Origin: a virus
Taxonomy: Duplodnaviria > Caudoviricetes
Length of the DNA: 64,000 nt
Strand: one strand, 5' to 3'
IMG/VR virus record: IMGVR_UViG_3300016659_000057
Location: 19,446 to 83,445 of that record
Part shown: positions 5,657 through 63,699 of the stretch, piece after piece
How positions within the stretch are numbered: the stretch's first letter is position 1
How the letters are laid out: every line of letters begins with the position of its first letter
Made by a program: the position numbers and the translations under genes
The notes under the pieces: model-generated
Database searches by the model: none
The model's input: the letters and a program-made list of their open reading frames with translations, nothing else
What the model was told of the DNA's origin: nothing

Positions 5657-6721
5657 ATGCGAGCGAAAAAGGCGGCAAACAGGGACCTGCCGCCGCGAAT
5701 GATTCGGCGCGTACGCACGCTGAAGGGTGGCAAAGAGTGGGTTGGCTATTACTACGACGGGAGGAATGAAGACGGGAAGCGGGTGGAAATCCCGCTTGGG
5801 GGTGATTTAGATATCGCCAAGGCTGAATGGGCAAAGCTTGATTGCAAGCCCGTGCCGAAGAAGAACGCCCTCCTGGTCCAGGTGTTTGACCGGTATGAAC
5901 GAGAGATCATCCCAGGCAAGAAGCCCAAGACCCAGAGCGACAACTTGCTGAGCCTCAAACAGCTGCGCAAGGCTTTCAATGATGCCCCCATTGATGCAGT
6001 TTCGCCGCAGATCATCGCGCAGTACCGGGACAGCCGAACCGCCAAAGTCCGGGCCAATAGGGAGATATCCCTACTGTCCCACATCTACAACATTGCGCGG
6101 GAGTGGGGGCTCACAGAGAACAACCCCGCCGCCGGCGTGCGCAAGAACAAAGAGGTGCCGCGTGACTTCTACGCCACCGAGGAAATCTGGAGCGCCGTGT
6201 ATGCCGTCGCAGCCTCGGAACTGCGTGACGCGATGGACCTGGCCTACCTGACTGCCCAGCGCCCGGCGGATACGCTGTCCATGCGTGAGGCGGACGCCGT
6301 AAACGAATTCCTGCAGGTATCCCAGGGCAAGACATCGAAGAAGCTACGCATTCGCCTGACCGCTGCCGGCGCACTCAATGACCTAGGCGCCTTGGTTGCA
6401 AGGCTGATAGAGCAAAGACGCTTACGGGGAGTGCGAAACCCTTACCTGATAATCACCGAAGACGGCAGGCAGGTGACTAAGCACATGCTCCGGCTACGCT
6501 TTGACGATGCTCGCGACAAAGCAATCTCCATCGCCAGAGAGGTAGGCGACGGTGTTCTTGCATCCAGTATTCGACAGTTTCAGTTCCGCGACATCCGCCC
6601 GAAAGCTGCCAGTGAGATTCTGGACCTTGGCGATGCCAGTCGCCTGTTGGGGCATACGGACAAGCGGATAACCGAGACGGTTTACCGTCGTGTTGGGGAG
6701 ATTGTGAAGCCGACACGCTGA
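5657..6721 (+). CDS. int: Tyrosine recombinase (integrase A)
   Basis: QRPAD, FRDIRPKAASE, LLGH and VYRR catalytic segments. Confidence 0.92.
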   Translation: MRAKKAANRDLPPRMIRRVRTLKGGKEWVGYYYDGRNEDGKRVEIPLGGDLDIAKAEWAKLDCKPVPKKNALLVQVFDRYEREIIPGKKPKTQSDNLLSLKQLRKAFNDAPIDAVSPQIIAQYRDSRTAKVRANREISLLSHIYNIAREWGLTENNPAAGVRKNKEVPRDFYATEEIWSAVYAVAASELRDAMDLAYLTAQRPADTLSMREADAVNEFLQVSQGKTSKKLRIRLTAAGALNDLGALVARLIEQRRLRGVRNPYLIITEDGRQVTKHMLRLRFDDARDKAISIAREVGDGVLASSIRQFQFRDIRPKAASEILDLGDASRLLGHTDKRITETVYRRVGEIVKPTR

Positions 6722-6802: not shown

Positions 6803-6911
6803 CCAGAAACGCAAAAGCCCCGCTTTCGCGAGGCTTTCGTGTAAATCTTGGCGGGAAACCAGGGATTCGAACCCTGGAGACGCTATTAACGTCCGCCGGT
6901 TTTCAAGACCG
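6803..6911 (-). repeat. att site: duplicated 3' half of tRNA-Ser (anticodon stem to CCA) plus terminator
   Basis: Matches 63563..63671 with 3 mismatches; 6803..6877 identical. Confidence 0.95.
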
Positions 6912-18871: not shown

Positions 18872-19621
18872 TCAGCTCCGAGCAATGAGTGAAACAGCGG
18901 GGAAACCCCCGAATGGCAAAGGGTTGCCCTCACCGAAGCGCGGGATGCAGCCCTTGCCAAGGGTGGCGTCGCACTCGTCTAGTTCGGGATTGTCAGTGAC
19001 TACCCCGTCCTTCGTGACGTAGGGGCCGGTGTATCCGCAATTGGGGCCTCGGTAGCCGCCGGTTAGACACCAATGGCATAGCGTGGTCATCTGCCGCCCG
19101 ATAGTTTCGCCGCCGACGTCGCCCGGGCTAGCCAAGTCCCAACTTACAGTTTCGCCGTCCTCATTGGTCTTTTGGTCGACGTACCAGACCTCAATCGATT
19201 CCTGAGTAGGGTCCGCCGTAGGGTTGCCGCCTTCGAAGTTCACAGCGTCCAGGTATTCTGCCAGCGTGTTTCGAATGGTCAGCTTGAACTCGAGCAGATC
19301 CTCGAAGGCCAGGCAGAGGGCGGTGATTCGCCCGTTGACGTTGCCGACCGACAGCTTGGGCCGTACCGCGGTGCCGTCGCCATTCGCCTCGCTGCCCTCG
19401 TACTGCATGGGCCAGGCGCCGTACTCTTCACCCTTCCACCAAATCGACTTGGCCGGCAACTGGTCAGCATTGCCGCCGGCGGCGATCAGTTCTGCAGGCG
19501 TATGCGGGATAGCGTGGCCATGGAAGCGCAGAACATCGGCGCCGTAGTCGCTGCCGTCCAGTTCGAACAGCATGACTTCATTCCCAGGCTCAAGAGTCTG
19601 GATAGCATTGATCAGCGACAT
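18872..19621 (-). CDS. Minor tail protein L
   Basis: C-terminal Cys cluster CHW...YRGPNCGY...C..RFG. Confidence 0.9.
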   Translation of the reverse strand: MSLINAIQTLEPGNEVMLFELDGSDYGADVLRFHGHAIPHTPAELIAAGGNADQLPAKSIWWKGEEYGAWPMQYEGSEANGDGTAVRPKLSVGNVNGRITALCLAFEDLLEFKLTIRNTLAEYLDAVNFEGGNPTADPTQESIEVWYVDQKTNEDGETVSWDLASPGDVGGETIGRQMTTLCHWCLTGGYRGPNCGYTGPYVTKDGVVTDNPELDECDATLGKGCIPRFGEGNPLPFGGFPAVSLIARS

Positions 19622-53665: not shown

Positions 53666-54397
53666 ATGTCCGATAAAAACATGCAGATCTGGAATCGCGT
53701 CGAGAAGACGGATACCCGGTACACCAAAGACGCGAAGGTCGGTGGCCAGCAGATCACCAGCCTGAATGGTACGGCGATGATCATGAAGGCCACCGAAGTG
53801 TTCGGTCCGGCAGGCATCGGTTTCGGCTGGAAAGTGCTGGAAGAGCGTTTCGACCCTGGCGTCGAGGTGTTCATCGGCGAAGGTGACAAGCGCTCCAGCC
53901 TGGGCTTTACCAGTAACCACACTGTTCGTATCGCCTTCTGGTTCGTGCTCGACGGCCAGCGCGGCGAGATCGAATCGTATGGCTGCACAAACTACATCTA
54001 CAAGGCGTCGTACGGGATGCTCACAGATGGCGAGGCCCCAAAGAAAAGCCTCACCGACGCAATCAAGAAGGCTTTGAGCTCGCTCGGGTTCAGCGCCGAC
54101 GTGTTCCTGGGGATGTTCGACGACAAGGACTACGTCAACGCTCTGGCTGATGAGCAAGCGATCGAGCAGGCCGAAGACAAGGTCGCCGAGGAAGAGCGCC
54201 AAAAACAGGAGCGCCTGGACTACATCGCGTCCGTTATAGGGTCCTTAAAGACCGCCAAGACGCCGAAGGAGCTCAAAGCATTCCATGACGTTGCTGTCCG
54301 TCGCCTCACGCTGCGCAACGACACCAAGGCCGTTACCCGGATCGTGCGCGAGTACGACGATCAGAAAGTCCGGTTCGAACAGGAGTCAGCAGCATGA
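53666..54397 (+). CDS. Single-strand annealing recombinase (Rad52/Rad22-like)
   Basis: KTD..YTK...ATEVFGP.G.G.GW, A.KKSLTDAIKKALS.LGF.ADVF.G.FDD. Confidence 0.72.
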   Translation: MSDKNMQIWNRVEKTDTRYTKDAKVGGQQITSLNGTAMIMKATEVFGPAGIGFGWKVLEERFDPGVEVFIGEGDKRSSLGFTSNHTVRIAFWFVLDGQRGEIESYGCTNYIYKASYGMLTDGEAPKKSLTDAIKKALSSLGFSADVFLGMFDDKDYVNALADEQAIEQAEDKVAEEERQKQERLDYIASVIGSLKTAKTPKELKAFHDVAVRRLTLRNDTKAVTRIVREYDDQKVRFEQESAA

Positions 54398-54891
54398 CGA
54401 CGCTCTATACCATTGCCGAGCAGTTCAAGGAACTGGCAATCCTGGCTGAAACAGCCGACGAAGACCTGGCCGTCGCACTGCGCGACACCATGGAAGGGAT
54501 CGAGGGCGAGTTCCAGGAGAAGGGTAAGGCAATCGCCATGATTACCCTGAACATCGACGGCGACCTTGAGGCCATCCAATCCCAGATTGACCGGCTGACC
54601 GAGCGCAAGCGGATCATCAACAACCGCAAGGAAAGCCTCAAGGAGTACCTGCGCAGCAACATGGACGCGGCAGGGATCACCAAGATTACCCACCCGCTGT
54701 TCACCATCACCTGCGGCAAGGGCAAGCCCATCGTGGTCATCGACGACGAAAAGGCCATACCCGACGACTTCGTCAACATCAAAGTAACCAGCGCGCCGGA
54801 CAAGGCAGCCATCGCCAAGGCCTTGAAGGATGGACAGGAGGTCCCTGGCGCCCACTCCGAGATCGGCAAAAGCTCGATCAGCATCAAGTGA
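54394..54891 (+). CDS. Siphovirus Gp157 family protein
   Basis: LYTIAEQF...IP.DF......PDK.AI.KALK.G.EVPGA. Confidence 0.85.
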   Translation: MTTLYTIAEQFKELAILAETADEDLAVALRDTMEGIEGEFQEKGKAIAMITLNIDGDLEAIQSQIDRLTERKRIINNRKESLKEYLRSNMDAAGITKITHPLFTITCGKGKPIVVIDDEKAIPDDFVNIKVTSAPDKAAIAKALKDGQEVPGAHSEIGKSSISIK

Positions 54892-54898
54892 GGTCAGC

Positions 54899-55489
54899 AT
54901 GATCAGCATCCTACAGAACGAAGTAGAACGCCTTCGGAAGTCTTCGAACGAGCTGGCCGCCCAGGTCGCTGAGTTTGTGGCGGCCGGCGGTGAGATAGAG
55001 GAAATAAAGCCGCCGCCACCACCGAAACCGGTCGTCTACGTACCTCAAGAGCCTCCAGCGCCCAAGCCGTTCGTTCGGCGCCGGGTTGAAGCAGCTCCCC
55101 TGCCCCTGGACAGGGAAGATGTTCGGGGGCAGGCCAGGCTAAAGCTGGTGGAGCACATGCGCCAACTGAGCACCACGCACACCCAAACAGAGGCCGCCGC
55201 CGCCCTGGGCATCAGTCGCCGCAACGTCTACAAGCACGCCACCATGAACGACATCACGTTCAAGAAGCCGGAACGAGGCGGTGCGAACAACAACTACCGC
55301 CGAGACCAAATGGGTGAGCGCGACGCGAAGTACGCCGAGCGCATCCGTGCATTCCTGGAGCTTGGAATCACACGGCGCCAGTGCTGCGGGAAGCTCGCCA
55401 TCAACAATAAGGCCTTTGAGCGGATCATCGCGGCCCACGGCATCGACTATCCAAAGGCCCGTCGCGGAAGCACCTCATGCGCCGCATAG
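54899..55489 (+). CDS. Hypothetical protein with HTH-like segments
   Basis: TQTEAAAALGISRRNV; GAGG RBS. Confidence 0.7.
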   Translation: MISILQNEVERLRKSSNELAAQVAEFVAAGGEIEEIKPPPPPKPVVYVPQEPPAPKPFVRRRVEAAPLPLDREDVRGQARLKLVEHMRQLSTTHTQTEAAAALGISRRNVYKHATMNDITFKKPERGGANNNYRRDQMGERDAKYAERIRAFLELGITRRQCCGKLAINNKAFERIIAAHGIDYPKARRGSTSCAA

Positions 55490-55558
55490 CCCGCACCCAG
55501 CAACGCAAACGTCAACCCTGGCTCGCTCTGCCGGCCAGCGGAATAGAAGAGGTTGGCC

Positions 55559-55870
55559 ATGGCAGCCGCGCAGAAAGAACGATCAGCAAAGACTGCGGCG
55601 AGGCGAAAGACTCGCGGCGAGGAAGAATTGCGACTCCACACCATGGCCGGCACCCGCCAAGCCTTGGCTGACCTAATGGCCTGGCACGGCATCGAGGAAC
55701 AGGGCGAGGCGATGACGCTGATGATTCACCATCTGCACGGCCTCGGCCCAGCGGGTTCAGCGCAGTTCCTCGCGCCGCCGCGACACGAATACGTGATACC
55801 CGAAAACGTGTCGGCAAAATTGCAGCTCGCCTACAACCGCGAATCGATACGCATCTGCCACGACGAATAA
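55559..55870 (+). CDS. Early hypothetical protein
   Basis: GAGG RBS; GEEELRL ribbon-like motif. Confidence 0.68.
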   Translation: MAAAQKERSAKTAARRKTRGEEELRLHTMAGTRQALADLMAWHGIEEQGEAMTLMIHHLHGLGPAGSAQFLAPPRHEYVIPENVSAKLQLAYNRESIRICHDE

Positions 55871-55921
55871 CCAAAAAAGCCGATCCCCACGACTGGCTTG
55901 GCTCAATCCTGAGGAATACCC

Positions 55922-56515
55922 ATGAAGCCCGAAATGATCACCCTGAAACACGGCGACGCGTCTATCAAGATGCCTGCCTCGGCCTTGGCACAACTGGCAA
56001 TGGCCAGCGTGTTTGCCCAGGTGCTGCCACCGGCGGCGAACGCTCAAATGTCCGCTCCATGTGTCGCGCCATCCATTGGCGAATACTGGCCAGGCCAGGG
56101 CGGCATCAACGCGGGCTTCGTACCGCGGCGTGGCGAGGTTGCAGCCCACTATCTGATTTTCGGCGACAAAGATCTTGGTGAGTTCAAGTGGGGCCGCTAC
56201 CAGGAAGAATCGCAAGCCACCAGCAAGTGGGATGGCAAAGCCAACACTGATGCGTTGATCGCTGCGGGAGGCCATCCAGCAGCCGAAGCGGCTCGATCAT
56301 ACACAGCAGACGGTCACGAAGATTTTGACTTGCCAGCGGCCGCGCAGTTGCATCAGGCCTGGACTCACGACCTGATCACCAAGGGTTACTACTGGTCGAG
56401 TTCGCAGCGCTCAGCCCACACCGCCTTCTACATGCTCTTCGATGTTGGCTATCAGTACGACTTCGCCAAGTACCTCGAGCTCCGTGTCCGCCCCGTCCGC
56501 AGATTCTTTATTTAA
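55922..56515 (+). CDS. DGR target 1, DUF1566 / C-type-lectin-fold protein
   Basis: DG..NT, LPA..QL, YWSSS...RVRPVR with C-terminal VR; GAGGA RBS. Confidence 0.88.
   Translation: MKPEMITLKHGDASIKMPASALAQLAMASVFAQVLPPAANAQMSAPCVAPSIGEYWPGQGGINAGFVPRRGEVAAHYLIFGDKDLGEFKWGRYQEESQATSKWDGKANTDALIAAGGHPAAEAARSYTADGHEDFDLPAAAQLHQAWTHDLITKGYYWSSSQRSAHTAFYMLFDVGYQYDFAKYLELRVRPVRRFFI
56402..56506 (+). repeat. Variable region VR1
   Basis: 105 nt, 16 mismatches to TR, all at TR adenines. Confidence 0.96.
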
Positions 56516-56548
56516 TCCTTCATCCATTCGTTCTTGATCCGGCACACC

Positions 56549-56565
56549 AGGGCGCACAGCGCCTT
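56549..56565 (+). other. GC hairpin downstream of VR1 (DGR target hairpin and/or terminator)
   Basis: AGGGCGC-ACA-GCGCCTT followed by T-run. Confidence 0.5.
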
Positions 56566-56594
56566 TTTTGTTGCCTTCGAAAAGAGGAAGCACC

Positions 56595-57215
56595 ATGTCC
56601 GCAGTTGAGAAAGCAGCACCGGCAGTGACCATCCCGGCCATCGGCCAGGCCTACGGCGGCGGTTTCGTCACCGGCATCACCCGCGATCCGGCAACCGGTA
56701 AGCGCTCCCTGCACATCACCGCCGGCGCAGCGCATGAGCTGATCGGTAAGTGGGGCGAGTACGGCGAGAAGATCGAAGGTGCCGACAGCTTCACCGACAG
56801 CTTGGCCAACACCCAGGCCATGGCAGCGGCAGGGAGTGAACTGGCAGCGAAGGTGCTAGCCCTGAATATCGAAGGCTTCGCCGATTGGGCGATCCCAGCG
56901 CGCGACGTGCAGGAGCTGCAATACCGCCACTTCAAGCCGACCACCGAAGAGAACTGGGAGAACTCGCGCAACGGTGACAATCCGCACAGCGAGCCAGTCG
57001 GCAAGCTGTACAGCGCCGAAGACCCGCTGCAAACCGTGCACGCCGCCTTCCAAGAAGGTGGCGCCGAAGCCTTCCGCGAAACCTGGTACTGGTCGAGTTC
57101 GCAGCGCTCAGCCAACAACGCATTCGGCATGACCTTCGTTGCTGGCACTCAGGACGGCACCGGCAAGGATCACGAGCTCCGTGTCCGCCCCGTCCGCAGC
57201 GAGCTTATTGATTAA
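56595..57215 (+). CDS. DGR target 2, DUF1566 / C-type-lectin-fold protein
   Basis: DS..NT, DWAIPARD, YWSSS...RVRPVR with C-terminal VR; AGAGGAA RBS. Confidence 0.88.
   Translation: MSAVEKAAPAVTIPAIGQAYGGGFVTGITRDPATGKRSLHITAGAAHELIGKWGEYGEKIEGADSFTDSLANTQAMAAAGSELAAKVLALNIEGFADWAIPARDVQELQYRHFKPTTEENWENSRNGDNPHSEPVGKLYSAEDPLQTVHAAFQEGGAEAFRETWYWSSSQRSANNAFGMTFVAGTQDGTGKDHELRVRPVRSELID
57099..57199 (+). repeat. Variable region VR2
   Basis: 101 nt, 14 mismatches to TR: 13 at TR adenines, one C>T. Confidence 0.95.
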
Positions 57216-57229
57216 TTCGCTTATTTAAT

Positions 57230-57247
57230 CCGGTCGCTTGCGGCCGG
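57230..57247 (+). other. GC hairpin downstream of VR2
   Basis: CCGGTCG-CTTG-CGGCCGG. Confidence 0.55.
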
Positions 57248-57276
57248 TTGCTTTTGCTTTTTGGAGCTGTACCGCA

Positions 57277-57633
57277 ATGGGAATGCACACCGATCTGTCG
57301 ATCTATCGAGCGGCCATGGGCCTCCTGCACATGGCGACCATCCTGACTCGCAACATCCCGCGAGACCTCAAACAATCGCTGGGCAAGCGAGTGATCGACG
57401 AATGCATCGAGGTCGTGATGCTGATCGCCCGTGCAAACGCAACCCAGGACAAACGCCCCCACCTGACTCTGCTGGTCGAGAGGGTTCAAGTGGTCGAGTT
57501 CCTGATGCGCCTATTCAAGGACAGCCGATTCATCAGTGTCGAACAGCATGCTAAAGCGATCGAGGTAACAGCCTCCGTCGGCAAGCAAGCCAACGCCTGG
57601 AAACGCTCCACCCCAACCGCGCCCGCTACCTGA
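57277..57633 (+). CDS. avd: DGR accessory variability determinant (four-helix bundle)
   Basis: L.IY....P...K.SLG...I.RAN...LMRL......IS......VGKQANAWKR; lies between target and TR. Confidence 0.88.
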   Translation: MGMHTDLSIYRAAMGLLHMATILTRNIPRDLKQSLGKRVIDECIEVVMLIARANATQDKRPHLTLLVERVQVVEFLMRLFKDSRFISVEQHAKAIEVTASVGKQANAWKRSTPTAPAT

Positions 57634-57805
57634 AGGTTACGGCTTTCTGGTCTGTGCGAATTGAATCTGGTCGTGCCGCTGACCTGATAGGTCACCGCCA
57701 TGCGCATCAGGGATACCGACGGTCTAAAGTGTCCGTGCAGGTCTCGCGCAGTTTCCTTGCTGATCGGCTATGCCTTCGGCTCGGCGACGTAGATAGCACG
57801 ATAGG

Positions 57806-57910
57806 TCGCAGCGCTCAGCCAACAACGCATTCAACATGAACTTCGATGATGGCAATCAGAACAACAACGACAAGAACAACGAGCTCCGTGTCCGCCCCGT
57901 CCGCAGATTC
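57806..57910 (+). repeat. DGR template repeat (TR)
   Basis: 105 nt, 33 adenines, nine AAC and one AAT codon in the target reading frame. Confidence 0.96.
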
Positions 57911-59006
57911 GACTTTGGGTCCCTACCCGTTTCAGGATCTGGTTCAGGCCTATTACGACTGCCGAAGCACCAAGCGCAACAGCGACAGCGCACTGGCTTT
58001 CGAGATCGACCTGGAGCGGAACCTGATTCAACTGCACGACGACCTGGTCAGCGGCAATTACCGCCCAGGCCGATCCATTTGTTTCGTTGTCACCCGCCCC
58101 AAAGCCCGCGAAGTCTGGGCGGCAGCCTTTCGGGACCGCGTCGTCCACCACCTGATGTACAACCATGTGGCCCCGCGCTTCTACGCCAGCTTCATAGCGG
58201 ACAGTTGCGCGTGTATTCCAGGGCGCGGCACGATGTACGCCGCCAAGCGGCTTGAGTCGAAGATTCGTAGCGCCAGTGAGAACTGGTCGAAGCCGATCTT
58301 CTACCTGAAGTGCGACCTGGCCAACTTCTTTGTCGCCATCGACAAGGCGGTGCTGCGCAAGCAACTTGAGGCCAGGATCACCGAACCATGGTGGCTCGCC
58401 CTGGCCACGCAGATCCTCATGCACGACCCGCGTGAGGATTACGAGACGCGAAGCCCGGCGCACCTGTTCAACCGGGTGCCGCAGCACAAGCGACTGGTGG
58501 CCCAGCCCTCCCGCCTCGGCCTGCCGATCGGCAATCTGTCATCGCAGTTCTTCGCCAACGTCTACCTCGACGCCCTGGACCAGTTCGCCAAGCACAGGCT
58601 GCGCGCCAAGCACTACATACGCTACGTGGACGACTTCGTCTTTCTGCATGAGTCACCGCAACGGCTCAACCAGTGGCTGGCCGAGGTCGAAGCTTTCCTG
58701 CCCAAGCTCGGCGCCAAGCTGAACCCCACCAAGACGATCCTGCAGCCCGTGGATCGCGGCGTCGACTTCGTGGGCCACGTCATCAAGCCCTGGCGGCGCA
58801 CCACCCGCAAGCGATCACTGGCCCAGGCACTGAAGCGCACCGCCGCGGCGCCGGCCGAGGATCTGCGCGAGACGGCCAACAGCTACTTCGGCCTGCTCAG
58901 CCAGGCCAGCCACAGCCATATGGACCGGGCAGCACTCGCCCGCGTCGTGCTGAAGCGCGGCAATAGCGTCAACGCCGCGCTGACCAAGACCTTTCAGAAA
59001 AAGTAA
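57846..59006 (+). CDS. DGR reverse transcriptase (start uncertain: ATG 57846 inside TR or TTG 57915)
   Basis: RDRVVHH, CDLANFF, GLPIGNLSSQFFANVYL (DGR-type SQ motif), YIRYVDDF, GVDFVGH. Confidence 0.95.
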   Translation: MMAIRTTTTRTTSSVSAPSADSTLGPYPFQDLVQAYYDCRSTKRNSDSALAFEIDLERNLIQLHDDLVSGNYRPGRSICFVVTRPKAREVWAAAFRDRVVHHLMYNHVAPRFYASFIADSCACIPGRGTMYAAKRLESKIRSASENWSKPIFYLKCDLANFFVAIDKAVLRKQLEARITEPWWLALATQILMHDPREDYETRSPAHLFNRVPQHKRLVAQPSRLGLPIGNLSSQFFANVYLDALDQFAKHRLRAKHYIRYVDDFVFLHESPQRLNQWLAEVEAFLPKLGAKLNPTKTILQPVDRGVDFVGHVIKPWRRTTRKRSLAQALKRTAAAPAEDLRETANSYFGLLSQASHSHMDRAALARVVLKRGNSVNAALTKTFQKK

Positions 59007-59050
59007 CTACCCCACTCCACCGCCCGGGCATGGCCCGGCAAGGACTCCCC

Positions 59051-59608
59051 GTGATCAACTTGTTCTGGCGCTTGGTCGCCAAGCTGCTTGCGCGCCCGGC
59101 GGTTGCCGCCTGGCTCATCACCCGCGCCCAGCGCACCCCGTACCTGCACATCATGTCCGCCGACGGCGCCGAGATGTACATGGGCCGCTGGTGGCTGTTC
59201 AACCCCTACTCCCGCGACACGCACAAGCCTGCGCTGCGGTGGTGCCCGTGGTCGTTCCGTGTGCACCACATCATGCGGCCCGACGAGGACCGGGATCTGC
59301 ATGACCACCCGTGGGATGCCCGCACGATCATCCTGCGCGGCTGGTACACCGAACAGCGCTTGCTAGACCACGATGACCCGGTGTTGTCCGGCCTGAACGT
59401 GCCTTTCGGCGCCCAGGCCACCGAATACATCGACCGCCACGCCGGCGACACCGCCCGCCTCAACCACGGCGAGTACCACCGGATCGACGAGCTATCGCCC
59501 GGCGGCGTCTACACCCTCTTCATCACCAGCAAGTGGCGTGGTGAATGGGGCTTTCTGGTCAACGGCGTGAAGGTTCCATGGCGCACCTACACCGGCACAG
59601 ACAATTGA
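59051..59608 (+). CDS. Cupin-like hypothetical protein
   Basis: DLHDHPWD...ILRGWYTE and GEYHRI His motifs; AAGGA RBS, GTG start. Confidence 0.68.
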   Translation: MINLFWRLVAKLLARPAVAAWLITRAQRTPYLHIMSADGAEMYMGRWWLFNPYSRDTHKPALRWCPWSFRVHHIMRPDEDRDLHDHPWDARTIILRGWYTEQRLLDHDDPVLSGLNVPFGAQATEYIDRHAGDTARLNHGEYHRIDELSPGGVYTLFITSKWRGEWGFLVNGVKVPWRTYTGTDN

Positions 59609-59618
59609 GGTTTTGAGT

Positions 59619-59954
59619 ATGAGCAAGGTAATTCAAACAGTGGAAGAGCTGGACGCCGTCCTGCATTGGCGCAACAAGCATGCTGTGGCGATCAAGGAGC
59701 GTGACGCACTGCAGCAAAAATTGGCAGTGGCGACAGCGATGCATCCATTCGCCGAAAAGGTGATCCGCAAACTGGAACGCTTCCAGGAGTGCGCGGACGA
59801 CGGGCAAGGCGCCGACATCGGACGGCACTGGTTTGACCTGCTGACCCAGCTCGGCCTGCTGAATCGTGTGCAGCGCAGCCCTGCTCTCTGGGAAATGACC
59901 CAGCAAGGCGAAGACGCCCTGAAATTATCACGGCAGAGCGCCAAATCCCGATAG
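59619..59954 (+). CDS. Hypothetical protein
   Basis: GAG RBS, coiled coil then wHTH-like end. Confidence 0.65.
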   Translation: MSKVIQTVEELDAVLHWRNKHAVAIKERDALQQKLAVATAMHPFAEKVIRKLERFQECADDGQGADIGRHWFDLLTQLGLLNRVQRSPALWEMTQQGEDALKLSRQSAKSR

Positions 59955-59984
59955 GAGTACATCCGTACTCCACCCGCAAAACCT

Positions 59985-60038
59985 GTAACCCCCCCCCTTC
60001 AAAGTCAGCCGCTATAACGGCAAGGACGAAGTCATGCC
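59985..60038. repeat. Conserved intergenic leader motif, found split at 3425..3462 and 3984..4015
   Basis: GTAACCCC..CTTCAAAGTCAGCCGCTATAACGGCAAGGACGAAGTCATGCC. Confidence 0.8.
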
Positions 60039-61580: not shown

Positions 61581-62174
61581 CCTACATGCCTGCCGGTGGG
61601 CGAAGTCACGGCAACTGACTATCGATCCATCGTTCAGCTGCCGCCATCGCTTCATCAAGCGCTGCCGGATAGTCAGGCCAAGGGCCTTCTAACTCTGCGG
61701 CAACCTCACCCAACCCATTGATGGGTGCTGGTTCAATGATCTTTGCGGCAACAGGGCTCTCGTCGTTCGGGCGGCGCCAGTCGAACTTGAGAACCATCAC
61801 GTGGCCCCGGTAAACGTGAGCTATCGGAGCATCGAAGTTGTGTGACACGTCCATGCCTCATCACGAACTTAATTGAACCCTTTTGTACACCGCTTCGGGC
61901 CTGTTTGAAAGATAGGCAGAAAGCTATCACTCCAATCCCCTATATGCCGCCTCGCGCGGCTAGGACACCCCCCCATGCTCGCAATGAAACTCACTCTGAT
62001 ACTGCTGGGCGCTTTGCTGTACCTGGTCGGCATCGGATGCTGGTTCTTCTGGATCGCCCCCCGCCTTCTGGCCGACGGCGAAACGGCCGACATCCTCTAC
62101 GCCTTCGCCGGCACTTGCGGCTGGCTGCTGATCACCTTCGGCCTGGCCATCCAAATCATCAAGACAGCACGGCC
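61581..62174. repeat. ~0.6 kb block homologous to 4781..5373
   Basis: Direct comparison. Confidence 0.9.
61606..61854 (-). CDS. 82-aa hypothetical protein (copy 2)
   Basis: Near-identical to 4806..5054. Confidence 0.7.
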   Translation of the reverse strand: MDVSHNFDAPIAHVYRGHVMVLKFDWRRPNDESPVAAKIIEPAPINGLGEVAAELEGPWPDYPAALDEAMAAAERWIDSQLP

Positions 62175-62196
62175 CACGGCCGCCGGCCGGAGGTAG
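61975..62196 (+). CDS. Small two-TM membrane protein
   Basis: Paralogue of 5174..5404. Confidence 0.7.
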   Translation: MLAMKLTLILLGALLYLVGIGCWFFWIAPRLLADGETADILYAFAGTCGWLLITFGLAIQIIKTARPTAAGRR

Positions 62197-62198
62197 TC

Positions 62199-62441
62199 AT
62201 GCAAGCAGAGATCCTGTCGGACGACGAGCTCGCCGACCTAACCGGCTACAAGCAGCGCGCTCACCAGCGCAAATGGCTGAAAGACCGAAACTGGGTGTTC
62301 ATCGAGAGCCGTGGCGGTCGCCCTCTGGTGGGTCGGATGTACGCGCGCATGAAGCTTGGGATGGTTAACGCCGCAATCGCAGATCCAAACCCGCCGCCGG
62401 CGCGTCCAGCTTGGACGCCTGATTTCTCCAGAGTGAACTGA
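62199..62441 (+). CDS. DUF4224-type excisionase-like protein
   Basis: LSDDELADLTGYK....QRKWL...GRPLVGR; GGAGG RBS. Confidence 0.78.
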   Translation: MQAEILSDDELADLTGYKQRAHQRKWLKDRNWVFIESRGGRPLVGRMYARMKLGMVNAAIADPNPPPARPAWTPDFSRVN

Positions 62442-62442
62442 T

Positions 62443-63492
62443 ATGCGCCCCCGAAACACGGAAAACAGGGACTTGCCGCCAGGAATGGTGCGTCGTAAGC
62501 GCCCAAGGAAGAATGGCAAGGTCTGGATCGGCTACTACTACCGTGACTCAGCGGGAAAAGAGATTCCGCTTGGTACAGACCTGAGCAAAGCCCGGCTGAA
62601 GTGGGCCGAACTGGAGGCCAAAGAAAAGCCTGCCGACCTGACAACGATGAAGGGCATCTTCGACCGATACGTGCGCGACGTCATCCCAAAAAAGGGGGAG
62701 CGAACCCAGAAGGACAACATGGCCGAACTGAAACAGCTTCGTCCTACGTTTGATGAGGCGCCCATCGATTCAATTACGCCGTTCAACGTCGCCGGCTACC
62801 GTGATGCCCGCTCAGCGAAGGTTCGTGCCAACCGCGAGATCGCGCTCCTGTCCCACGTTTTCAACATGGCCAGGGAGTGGGGGCTCACGGAGCGGGAGAA
62901 CCCTTGCCAGGGCATCAGGAAGAACAAGGAGGCACCGCGTAATTACTACGCCAACGCGGCTGTTTGGGATGCCGTCTACGCGGTTGCCGAACAAGAACTC
63001 AAGGAGGCCATGGACCTGGGCTATTTGACCGGACAGCGGCCTGCTGACGTGCTGATCATGCGCAGCGACGATACCGAAGGTGACTACTTCCTGGTAACCC
63101 AGGGCAAGACCGGCCAGAAGCTTCGAATCCTGATGCGTACGGAAGCCGGGGAAAACAGCTTGGGGAGATTGCTCAGGGAGATTGGCGAAAGGAATGTCGG
63201 TCATTCATCCAAGTACCTGCTGATCAACAGGTATGGAAAGCGAATGACGAAGGGGATGTTGCGCTTGCGCTGGGACAAGGCTCGGGAAAAAGCCCAGCAG
63301 AACGCCATCGAACAAGGCGACCCGCTGCTCGCGGCCAAGATTGGAGGGTTTCAGTTCCGCGACATCCGGCCGAAGGCCGCGTCGGAAATCATCGATATCG
63401 GGGATGCCAGCCTGCTACTGGGACACAGCAAACAGGAGATCACAAAGCGGGTTTACAGGAGGATTGGCGCCACCGCGAAACCGTCCAAATAG
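62443..63492 (+). CDS. int: Tyrosine recombinase (integrase B)
   Basis: GQRPAD, FRDIRPKAASE, LLGHS, RVYRR; clearly homologous to integrase A. Confidence 0.93.
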   Translation: MRPRNTENRDLPPGMVRRKRPRKNGKVWIGYYYRDSAGKEIPLGTDLSKARLKWAELEAKEKPADLTTMKGIFDRYVRDVIPKKGERTQKDNMAELKQLRPTFDEAPIDSITPFNVAGYRDARSAKVRANREIALLSHVFNMAREWGLTERENPCQGIRKNKEAPRNYYANAAVWDAVYAVAEQELKEAMDLGYLTGQRPADVLIMRSDDTEGDYFLVTQGKTGQKLRILMRTEAGENSLGRLLREIGERNVGHSSKYLLINRYGKRMTKGMLRLRWDKAREKAQQNAIEQGDPLLAAKIGGFQFRDIRPKAASEIIDIGDASLLLGHSKQEITKRVYRRIGATAKPSK

Positions 63493-63532: not shown

Positions 63533-63566
63533 GGCCAAAAGCAGAAGAAACATTCTCAAACACCAG

Positions 63567-63600
63567 AAACGCAAAAGCCCCGCTTTCGCGAGGCTTTCGT
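63567..63600 (-). terminator. Intrinsic terminator downstream of tRNA-Ser
   Basis: AAAGCCTCGC-GAAA-GCGGGGCTTT-TGCGTTT on minus strand; identical copy at 6807..6840. Confidence 0.8.
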
Positions 63601-63608
63601 GTAAATCT

Positions 63609-63699
63609 TGGCGGGAAACCAGGGATTCGAACCCTGGGAACGCTATTAACGTTCGCCGGTTTTCAAGACCGGTGCATTCAACCACTCTGCCAATTTCCC
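63609..63699 (-). tRNA. serT: tRNA-Ser(TGA)
   Basis: Acceptor GGGAAAT/GTTTCCC-G-CCA, anticodon loop CTTGAAA, long variable arm, TTCGAAT T-loop. Confidence 0.96.

Follow-up and report, generated by a model that had tools for sequence, protein, structure and literature searches.

Layout of the cassette and its repeats

The window analyzed here is a stretch of 64,000 nucleotides from a virus (positions 19,446 to 83,445 of the IMG/VR record IMGVR_UViG_3300016659_000057) and forms part of a provirus record. Between 55922 and 59006 it contains two target genes that end in variable repeats (VRs), the gene avd, a structured RNA, a template repeat (TR) and a reverse transcriptase (RT) gene. All defining parts of a diversity-generating retroelement (DGR) are thereby present and intact:

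55922-56515, plus strand: first target gene, VP1, an open reading frame (ORF) of 197 amino acids (phrog_4245, 1.6e-30)
56402-56506, plus strand: VR1, aligned to TR without gaps
56595-57215, plus strand: second target gene, VP2, 206 amino acids, a paralogue of VP1
57099-57199, plus strand: VR2
57277-57633, plus strand: avd, 118 amino acids (Pfam bAvd, 49.7 bits, cut-off 40; phrog_3206 'Avd protein of DGR', 6e-30)
57617-57808, plus strand: RT-15 structured RNA (Rfam RF03018, model positions 1-192, 181.8 bits against a gathering threshold of 82)
57806-57910, plus strand: TR, 105 nt with 33 adenines, from the ungapped alignment of the three copies
57846-59006, plus strand: ORF of the DGR RT (phrog_1423, 1.8e-116; PDB 8ub7, E 1.6e-36)

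The mismatches between the repeats fall almost exclusively on template adenines. VR1 differs from TR at 16 positions, all of them TR adenines, and VR2 at 14 positions, of which 13 are adenines and one is a C>T change opposite TR 57877. Computed with 32 adenines in the 101 shared positions, the chance of such a bias is ~1e-8 for VR1 (16/16) and ~3e-6 for VR2 (at least 13 of 14). Read in the VR frame, TR contains ten AAY codons, and in both target genes the VR ends 9-15 nt upstream of the stop codon. A GC-rich, nearly A-free tract at 57883-57906, with its sole A in the final CAG, is identical in TR, VR1 and VR2, and within this common tract no mismatch distinguishes an initiation of mutagenic homing site (IMH) from IMH*. 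Past TR 57906 the similarity of VR2 stops and gives way to plain divergence. The same boundary was found when TR and VRs were compared in the relatives described below, where the tract evolving in concert with the VRs corresponds to 57806/7-57906: TR-VR identity is 0.98-1.00 over 57807-57906, variable adenine sites excepted, and past 57906 drops at once from 0.99 to 0.50 or less, while the 5' side is mixed.

The RT carries the motifs GLPIGNLSSQ (58518-58547) and YVDD (58623-58634), that is, both (I/L)GxxxSQ and YxDD. Its best PDB match is the BPP-1 enzyme bRT (8ub7), and the alignment spans both motifs. NCBIfam was less informative: none of its models names the targets or the RT as DGR parts, the RT gives only sub-threshold group II and retron matches, and avd scores 50.5 bits with DivGenRetAVD, under the cut-off of 80. 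The RT ORF opens within TR, so that its first ~22 codons consist of the AAC-rich template in a different reading frame (MMAIRTTTTRTT...), and the conserved protein begins near 57927, 16 nt past TR. Because the ATGs at 57846 and 57849 lie within TR and are missing in some Burkholderia-type relatives, the true RT start is uncertain. A local dip in synonymous variability (0.21 against ~0.5 gene-wide) was seen at RT codons 105-119 (58158-58200).

A sequence-only reading of this DNA had claimed a gapless match of TR to the ends of two upstream genes with the above mismatch counts, followed by avd and an RT with GLPIGNLSSQ and YVDD in open frames, all within a prophage. Realignment reproduced every count and coordinate, and the profile matches and motif coordinates confirmed avd and RT; the implied start of VP2 was off by one base, its ATG lying at 56595. 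The prophage context is borne out by int, xis, cI, head, tail and lysis genes together with a 75-bp att repeat at a tRNA gene:

6803-6877, no strand assigned: attL core, an exact direct repeat of 63563-63637
63563-63637, no strand assigned: attR core, overlapping the 3' part of the tRNA-Ser gene and adjoining int (62443-63492)
63609-63699, minus strand: tRNA-Ser, overlapped by the attR core

The att repeats delimit a lambdoid Pseudomonas prophage of ~56.7 kb. Its head, tail and lysis genes occupy the minus strand at ~10-35 kb, the tail genes lying at 11-24 kb. Beyond cI (44147), a plus-strand early operon contains exo (53531), the DGR, a methyltransferase gene, xis and int. The targets are thus situated downstream of exo and upstream of xis/int (61842-63492), the tail genes being on the other strand, and this gene order places the DGR in the delayed-early region and not in the tail module. 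A search of 54000-60000 for sigma-70-like promoters gave none. Taken together, we assign a probability of about 0.92 to the reading that the cassette is a DGR in the delayed-early operon of this prophage, with adenine-directed transfer from TR to the VRs.

The variable target proteins

VP1 and VP2 share 31% identity, and their only PHROG match is phrog_4245, to which no function is assigned there. AlphaFold2 (AF2) models calculated from alignments of family members reached a pLDDT of 78 for VP1 and 70 for VP2, with low values over the VR stretch, as expected. The VP1 model comprises an N-terminal beta-hairpin and helix, which are an extra part of this protein, a linker and a C-type-lectin/DUF1566-like domain. 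In a wide VIA-align search, the best match of the VP2 model was the C-terminal domain of Legionella Lcl (8q4e, Z 7.0), and the list consisted mostly of C-type-lectin folds, the DGR variable proteins TvpA, Mtd and TaqVP among them. In BFVD, DUF1566 phage proteins matched the VP1 model at probability 1.00 with E values down to 6e-8, including an uncharacterised protein of Pseudomonas phage D3. Foldseek returned nothing at E <= 0.001 for the VP2 model against the PDB (the top row was again the Lcl C-terminal domain, E 0.95), and phmmer found no match of VP2 to PDB sequences. With Pfam PF07603 Lcl_C (DUF1566), VP2 scored 27.3 bits against a cut-off of 34.9 and VP1 gave no match. Since the Pfam threshold is missed but a likeness at the level of the fold is present, we regard both proteins as DUF1566-like and not as formal members of the family, and predict a C-type-lectin fold for them with moderate confidence.

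Neither a lipobox nor an obvious signal peptide was seen in VP1 or VP2 by inspection, no dedicated predictor being used. Residues 1-45 of VP1 were considered as a Sec signal peptide; against this, a 16-residue charged segment precedes the hydrophobic stretch, homologues have charged residues within this stretch, and AF2 gives a beta-hairpin and a helix. The proteins resemble the targets of the category d or 'CLec2' DGRs, which are short, consist of DUF1566 only and have Legionella LdtA as their prototype (Wu et al. 2018; PMC5758913): they too are short and DUF1566-like, carry a C-terminal VR, occur in multi-target cassettes and find their best structural match in Lcl. LdtA is a surface lipoprotein, whereas VP1 and VP2 lack the corresponding signals and are encoded in the early region of a phage. 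Viral DGR targets are mostly tail proteins with a non-structural residue (Roux et al. 2021), and it is in this residue that VP1 and VP2 fall. Our best guess is that they are soluble diversified binding proteins made early in the lytic cycle; as candidate roles we consider intracellular binders, exclusion or counter-defence factors, and accessory adhesins released at lysis.

The repertoire of 4^33 DNA variants given in the sequence-only reading as a theoretical maximum is a formal ceiling and overstates what the family uses. Across 119 related TR/VR pairs, just 26 of the TR adenines were variable in over 5% of the pairs; the conserved SQRSA, Q, K and E codons keep theirs unchanged, as does the final CAG. 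With 26 variable adenines, each target could take ~4.5e15 DNA variants or ~3.3e14 peptide variants.

Downstream of each target gene lies a GC-rich hairpin:

56549-56565, plus strand: GC hairpin and T-run after VP1, a terminator and/or DGR target-site hairpin
57230-57247, plus strand: GC hairpin and T-run of the same type after VP2, from the hairpin scan

Such hairpins occur ~33 nt past the VR end in 131 of 221 related VRs compared with 38 of 436 random windows, and could equally be explained as terminators. Immediately 3' of VR1, VR2 and TR, the DNA folding energy does not exceed that of shuffled controls (z 0.4, -1.0 and 1.1), and a BPP-1-like hairpin directly 3' of the VR is therefore not supported. 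An AT-rich motif (TTATTTAATCC) recurs in similar form after both targets (56507-56530 and 57203-57235), 4 nt past the VR1 homology and ~27 nt past that of VR2; the likeness is owed in part to the common ...I(D)-stop coding ends.

The RT-15 RNA and its pairing with the template

RT-15 overlaps the avd stop codon, and its end falls on the first bases of TR. It was found at the same place in all 14 scanned related loci that retain avd and TR, and its helices covary in the alignment of related loci. Searching 57400-58200 against Rfam at E values up to 1 returned RT-15 alone, with neither RF03022 nor a retron or group II RNA. A search of 151 genomes from the class of one relative, which was inefficient, recovered RT-15 only in the centre genome; the wider sample was obtained by a DNA-pattern scan of IMG/VR. 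RT-15 was described as an orphan RT-associated motif by Weinberg et al. 2017 (PMC5737381), who assigned only RT-10 to DGRs and speculated that other RT motifs work in DGRs, too. In the literature that we searched, no paper was found that ties RT-15 to DGRs or describes pairing of RT-15 with the far end of TR. The match in the window covers the full length of the Rfam model, and this pairing lies outside the model. Four segments are involved in the long-range interactions:

57661-57669, plus strand: proposed primer strand UUGAAUCUG, an unpaired, conserved segment of RT-15 complementary to 57904-57912
57671-57676, plus strand: 5' half of the stem that closes RT-15, proposed as a strand of the stop duplex; it follows the primer strand after 1 nt
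57796-57801, plus strand: 3' half of the closing stem; its end lies 4 nt upstream of the point where TR-VR homology sets in
57904-57912, plus strand: TR 3' boundary segment CAGAUUCGA, the complement of 57661-57669

The 9-bp helix between RT-15 and TR (57661-57669:57904-57912) begins exactly at the 3' end of the VR-copied tract. In 39 distinct rows of the alignment, 95.9% of the cells are paired, compared with 16-47% in slid registers, and 13 cells are changed on both sides, compared with 2.2 in shuffles, none of 500 of which reached 13. A broader sampling, with 69 distinct combinations, gave several kinds of pair at helix position 7 (GC 27, UA 12, CG 11, AU 4, UG 6, GU 2). Pairing reaches 100% in the closing stem (57671-57676:57796-57801), one pair of which covaries (UA to AU, 4 rows). 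Both long-range helices are intact in the copy of the window. Three points weigh against this part of the interpretation: an A.C mismatch recurs at helix position 6 within one subclade, five of the nine pairs barely vary, and kinship among the sequences inflates the shuffle statistics.

The element had been described as BPP-1-type. The mutagenic signature bears this out; the cassette does not. The likeness comprises a homologous RT (31.6% identity by tblastn), Avd, adenine-specific transfer from TR to VR, a VR at the C-terminus of a protein predicted to have a C-type-lectin fold, a GC-rich, A-free tract that closes both VR and TR on the 3' side, and two adjacent RNA helices that apparently bracket the template. 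In BPP-1, however, TR directly follows avd, and a 144-nt spacer with the Rfam element RF03022 (Phage_DGR, formerly RT-10) precedes brt, whereas in the window this spacer is absent, avd and TR are separated by a 172-nt gap occupied by RT-15, and the RT ORF opens within TR. Moreover, the window has two targets of ~200 amino acids in the early operon instead of one, and these are not tail fibres.

The BPP-1 ribonucleoprotein (RNP) offers a template for interpreting the helices (Handa et al., bioRxiv 10.1101/2023.10.23.563531). There, TR 117-129 and spacer (Sp) 47-56 form a template:primer duplex; two nucleotides on, Sp 59-70 pairs with avd 369-379, just upstream of TR, in a stop duplex, and TR forms a loop between the two duplexes. 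The primer strand is preceded by a stem-loop for Avd binding, whose loop is UNCG, and the stop strand is followed by a short hairpin, unpaired bases and a long interrupted stem that binds RT. In RT-15 the elements follow one another in the same order: after a 10-bp stem-loop (with a UACG cap in the window) come the primer-like strand and that of the closing stem, and after these a 7-bp hairpin, three bases left unpaired and a long stem interrupted by two interior loops. Here, however, every one of these elements lies 5' of the template. The helix at the 3' edge of the copied tract and the contiguous second helix at its 5' edge would also reproduce the geometry of the template:primer and stop duplexes.

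On the basis of this common order, we propose RT-15 as a circularly permuted counterpart of the BPP-1 spacer, with TR looped out between coaxial helices and cis-priming from about G57669 onto G57903. We rate this proposal, which draws on covariation, geometry and analogy, slightly above even odds. RT and Avd would bind an RNA spanning RT-15 and TR, and RT-15 would do from the 5' side the work that in BPP-1 falls to the spacer on the 3' side. The strand 57661-57669 would pair with the TR edge 57904-57912 as the template:primer duplex, so that G57903 would be the first base copied, and the closing stem, just before TR, would serve as the stop. The cDNA, copied across TR with random incorporation opposite adenine, would then replace VR1 or VR2 as far as the invariant GC-rich ...GTCCGCAG edge, and as many as 16 codons of the ligand-binding face, AAY in ten cases, could be re-coded.

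The helix could also be real without being a primer duplex. It might loop TR for RNA stability, for processing or for the loading of RT-Avd, with priming elsewhere, at a nick or from a 3' segment within the RT coding region. Covariation demonstrates pairing and not function, and Naorem et al. 2017 (PMC5703328) proposed priming by nicked template RNA in BPP-1. The onset of the helix exactly at the 3' edge of the VR-copied tract argues against this alternative, as does its contiguity with a second helix that abuts the 5' edge, just as the template:primer and stop duplexes do in BPP-1. No conserved RNA signal was detected 3' of TR either: among 100 unique sequences, variability at synonymous sites of the RT gene is lowered only in the overlap with TR and returns to the gene-wide level directly after it, so that no hidden conserved RNA is to be expected there. 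We therefore consider a non-priming role of the helix unlikely, though by no means negligible.

Relatives, activity and significance

Closely related cassettes are widespread. By megablast, relatives were found in the Pseudomonas phages SC_8_H2H8_2017 (86% identity over the whole cassette), Cruim01 and Medea1. A genome scan yielded 47 loci, mainly in Pseudomonas and some in Burkholderiales, and the scan of IMG/VR yielded at least 596 candidate stretches, of which 595 were confirmed as RT relatives. SC_8_H2H8_2017, Cruim01, Burkholderia phage Magia and at least 595 IMG/VR contigs share the same cassette (two targets, avd, RT-15, TR, RT) with other VR alleles. In Magia, RT-15 is likewise located 5' of TR, and the annotators of its record had already flagged a DGR target and an Avd-like protein. 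Cruim01 (PP179333, 2526-5613) has a complete cassette whose VRs show 12 and 13 adenine-only mismatches; its record names the RT 'retron-type' and enters RT-15 under misc_RNA only, and the accompanying paper (PMC11256456) makes no mention of a DGR.

The comparison of these relatives indicates repeated homing. In the 109 related elements with identifiable TR and VRs (100 with two VRs and six with three), 2953 of 3127 TR-VR mismatches (94.4%) fall on TR adenines. Fourteen elements, the window and 13 others, have exactly the same TR, and 24 of their 28 VR alleles are distinct; across the relatives, TR is conserved while the VRs turn over in an adenine-specific manner. Between the VP1 gene of the window and that of one relative (L061), 6 of the 480 nt preceding the VR differ, compared with 20 of the 101 inside it, and all 20 lie at TR adenines. 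This excess of changes at TR adenines, together with the adenine bias in the 109 elements, indicates that the family is active in nature. Moreover, lineage-specific changes of TR at bases other than adenine recur in the VRs of the same element, up to ...CCGCAG and no further, and this pattern of copying reads as the signature of repeated homing. The sequence-only reading had called the element functional now or recently. This is well supported for the lineage and, given the intact parts and the 109 relatives, activity of the copy in the window is likely as well.

Several points weigh against our overall interpretation. VR2 contains a single C>T change at a non-adenine position. Support for activity of this particular copy is comparative and drawn from relatives. 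The support for the fold of the targets is moderate, with a Z of 7.0, a sub-threshold Lcl_C score and low pLDDT over the VR. Finally, a role in tropism like that of Mtd is not supported, because there is no clear signal peptide and the genes lie outside the structural module.

The non-adenine change in VR2 would fit a fossil, that is, a lineage that was once active and of which the present copy no longer homes, leaving its VRs frozen, and dead derivatives do occur in the family: Medea1 lacks avd, TR and RT, and L023, a contig labelled Janthinobacterium sp., lacks avd, RT-15 and TR. In the window, however, none of the four ORFs is interrupted, the catalytic motifs are preserved, RT-15 gives a full-length score, TR is identical to that of 13 other elements and both long-range helices are intact, and we consider a fossil improbable. 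The reading that the repeats are ends of paralogous genes under gene conversion, beside an unrelated retron, Abi or group II RT, as the 'retron-type' annotation of the homologous enzyme in Cruim01 and the sub-threshold NCBIfam matches might suggest, is effectively refuted, since gene conversion yields neither an adenine bias of 94-100% nor an AAY-rich TR, the closest solved relative of the RT is BPP-1 bRT with the DGR motif present, an avd gene accompanies it and Rfam detects no retron or group II RNA.

The two derivatives deserve a brief description. In Medea1 (MW862109, 4526-5834), both targets, annotated there as DUF1566, are kept with their VR-like ends; avd, RT-15, TR and RT are gone, and an unrelated ORF and methyltransferases stand in place of the DGR core. 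Its VRs are orphans left after the loss of this core. In L023 (3502-5161), a VP1-type VR is fused straight to the 5' region of RT; it differs from the TR of the window at 17 positions, 15 of them adenines. L023, a natural dead derivative in a non-Pseudomonas assembly, apparently arose by recombination of VR with TR.

Some further features of the prophage were noted. A second tyrosine integrase gene (5657-6721) lies just left of attL, which points to two integrative elements in tandem at the same tRNA-Ser site. In the early operon, 54830-55489 encodes a protein of 219 amino acids with a SutA RNA-polymerase-binding domain (PF20661, 31.3 bits, cut-off 29.3) and, after it, a helix-turn-helix; a phage factor acting on host RNA polymerase is one possibility. 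The ORF directly after RT (59030-59608, 192 amino acids) matches phrog_4786 'cysteine dioxygenase' at 1e-49 and has no Pfam or NCBIfam match.

DGRs have been catalogued by the thousand. As a DGR, the element in the window is of an ordinary, abundant kind and adds little, the cassette type being common in Pseudomonas and Burkholderia prophages; its unusual trait is the helper RNA in front of the template. The large and clearly active family to which it belongs diversifies small targets without sign of a structural role, in the early region of temperate phages, and since cultured relatives exist (Cruim01, Magia, Haboob, phPA-G), the role of these targets is open to study. The family also provides a natural test of how general the cis-priming and stopping of BPP-1 are: its helper RNA, although located on the opposite side of the template, seems to re-create the same clamp of two helices, and its layout is a testable variant of the one DGR that has been studied mechanistically. 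If the permuted spacer is correct, there would be two or more RNA topologies among DGR ribonucleoproteins, and a function would be found for an orphan Rfam motif present in at least 595 phage contigs.

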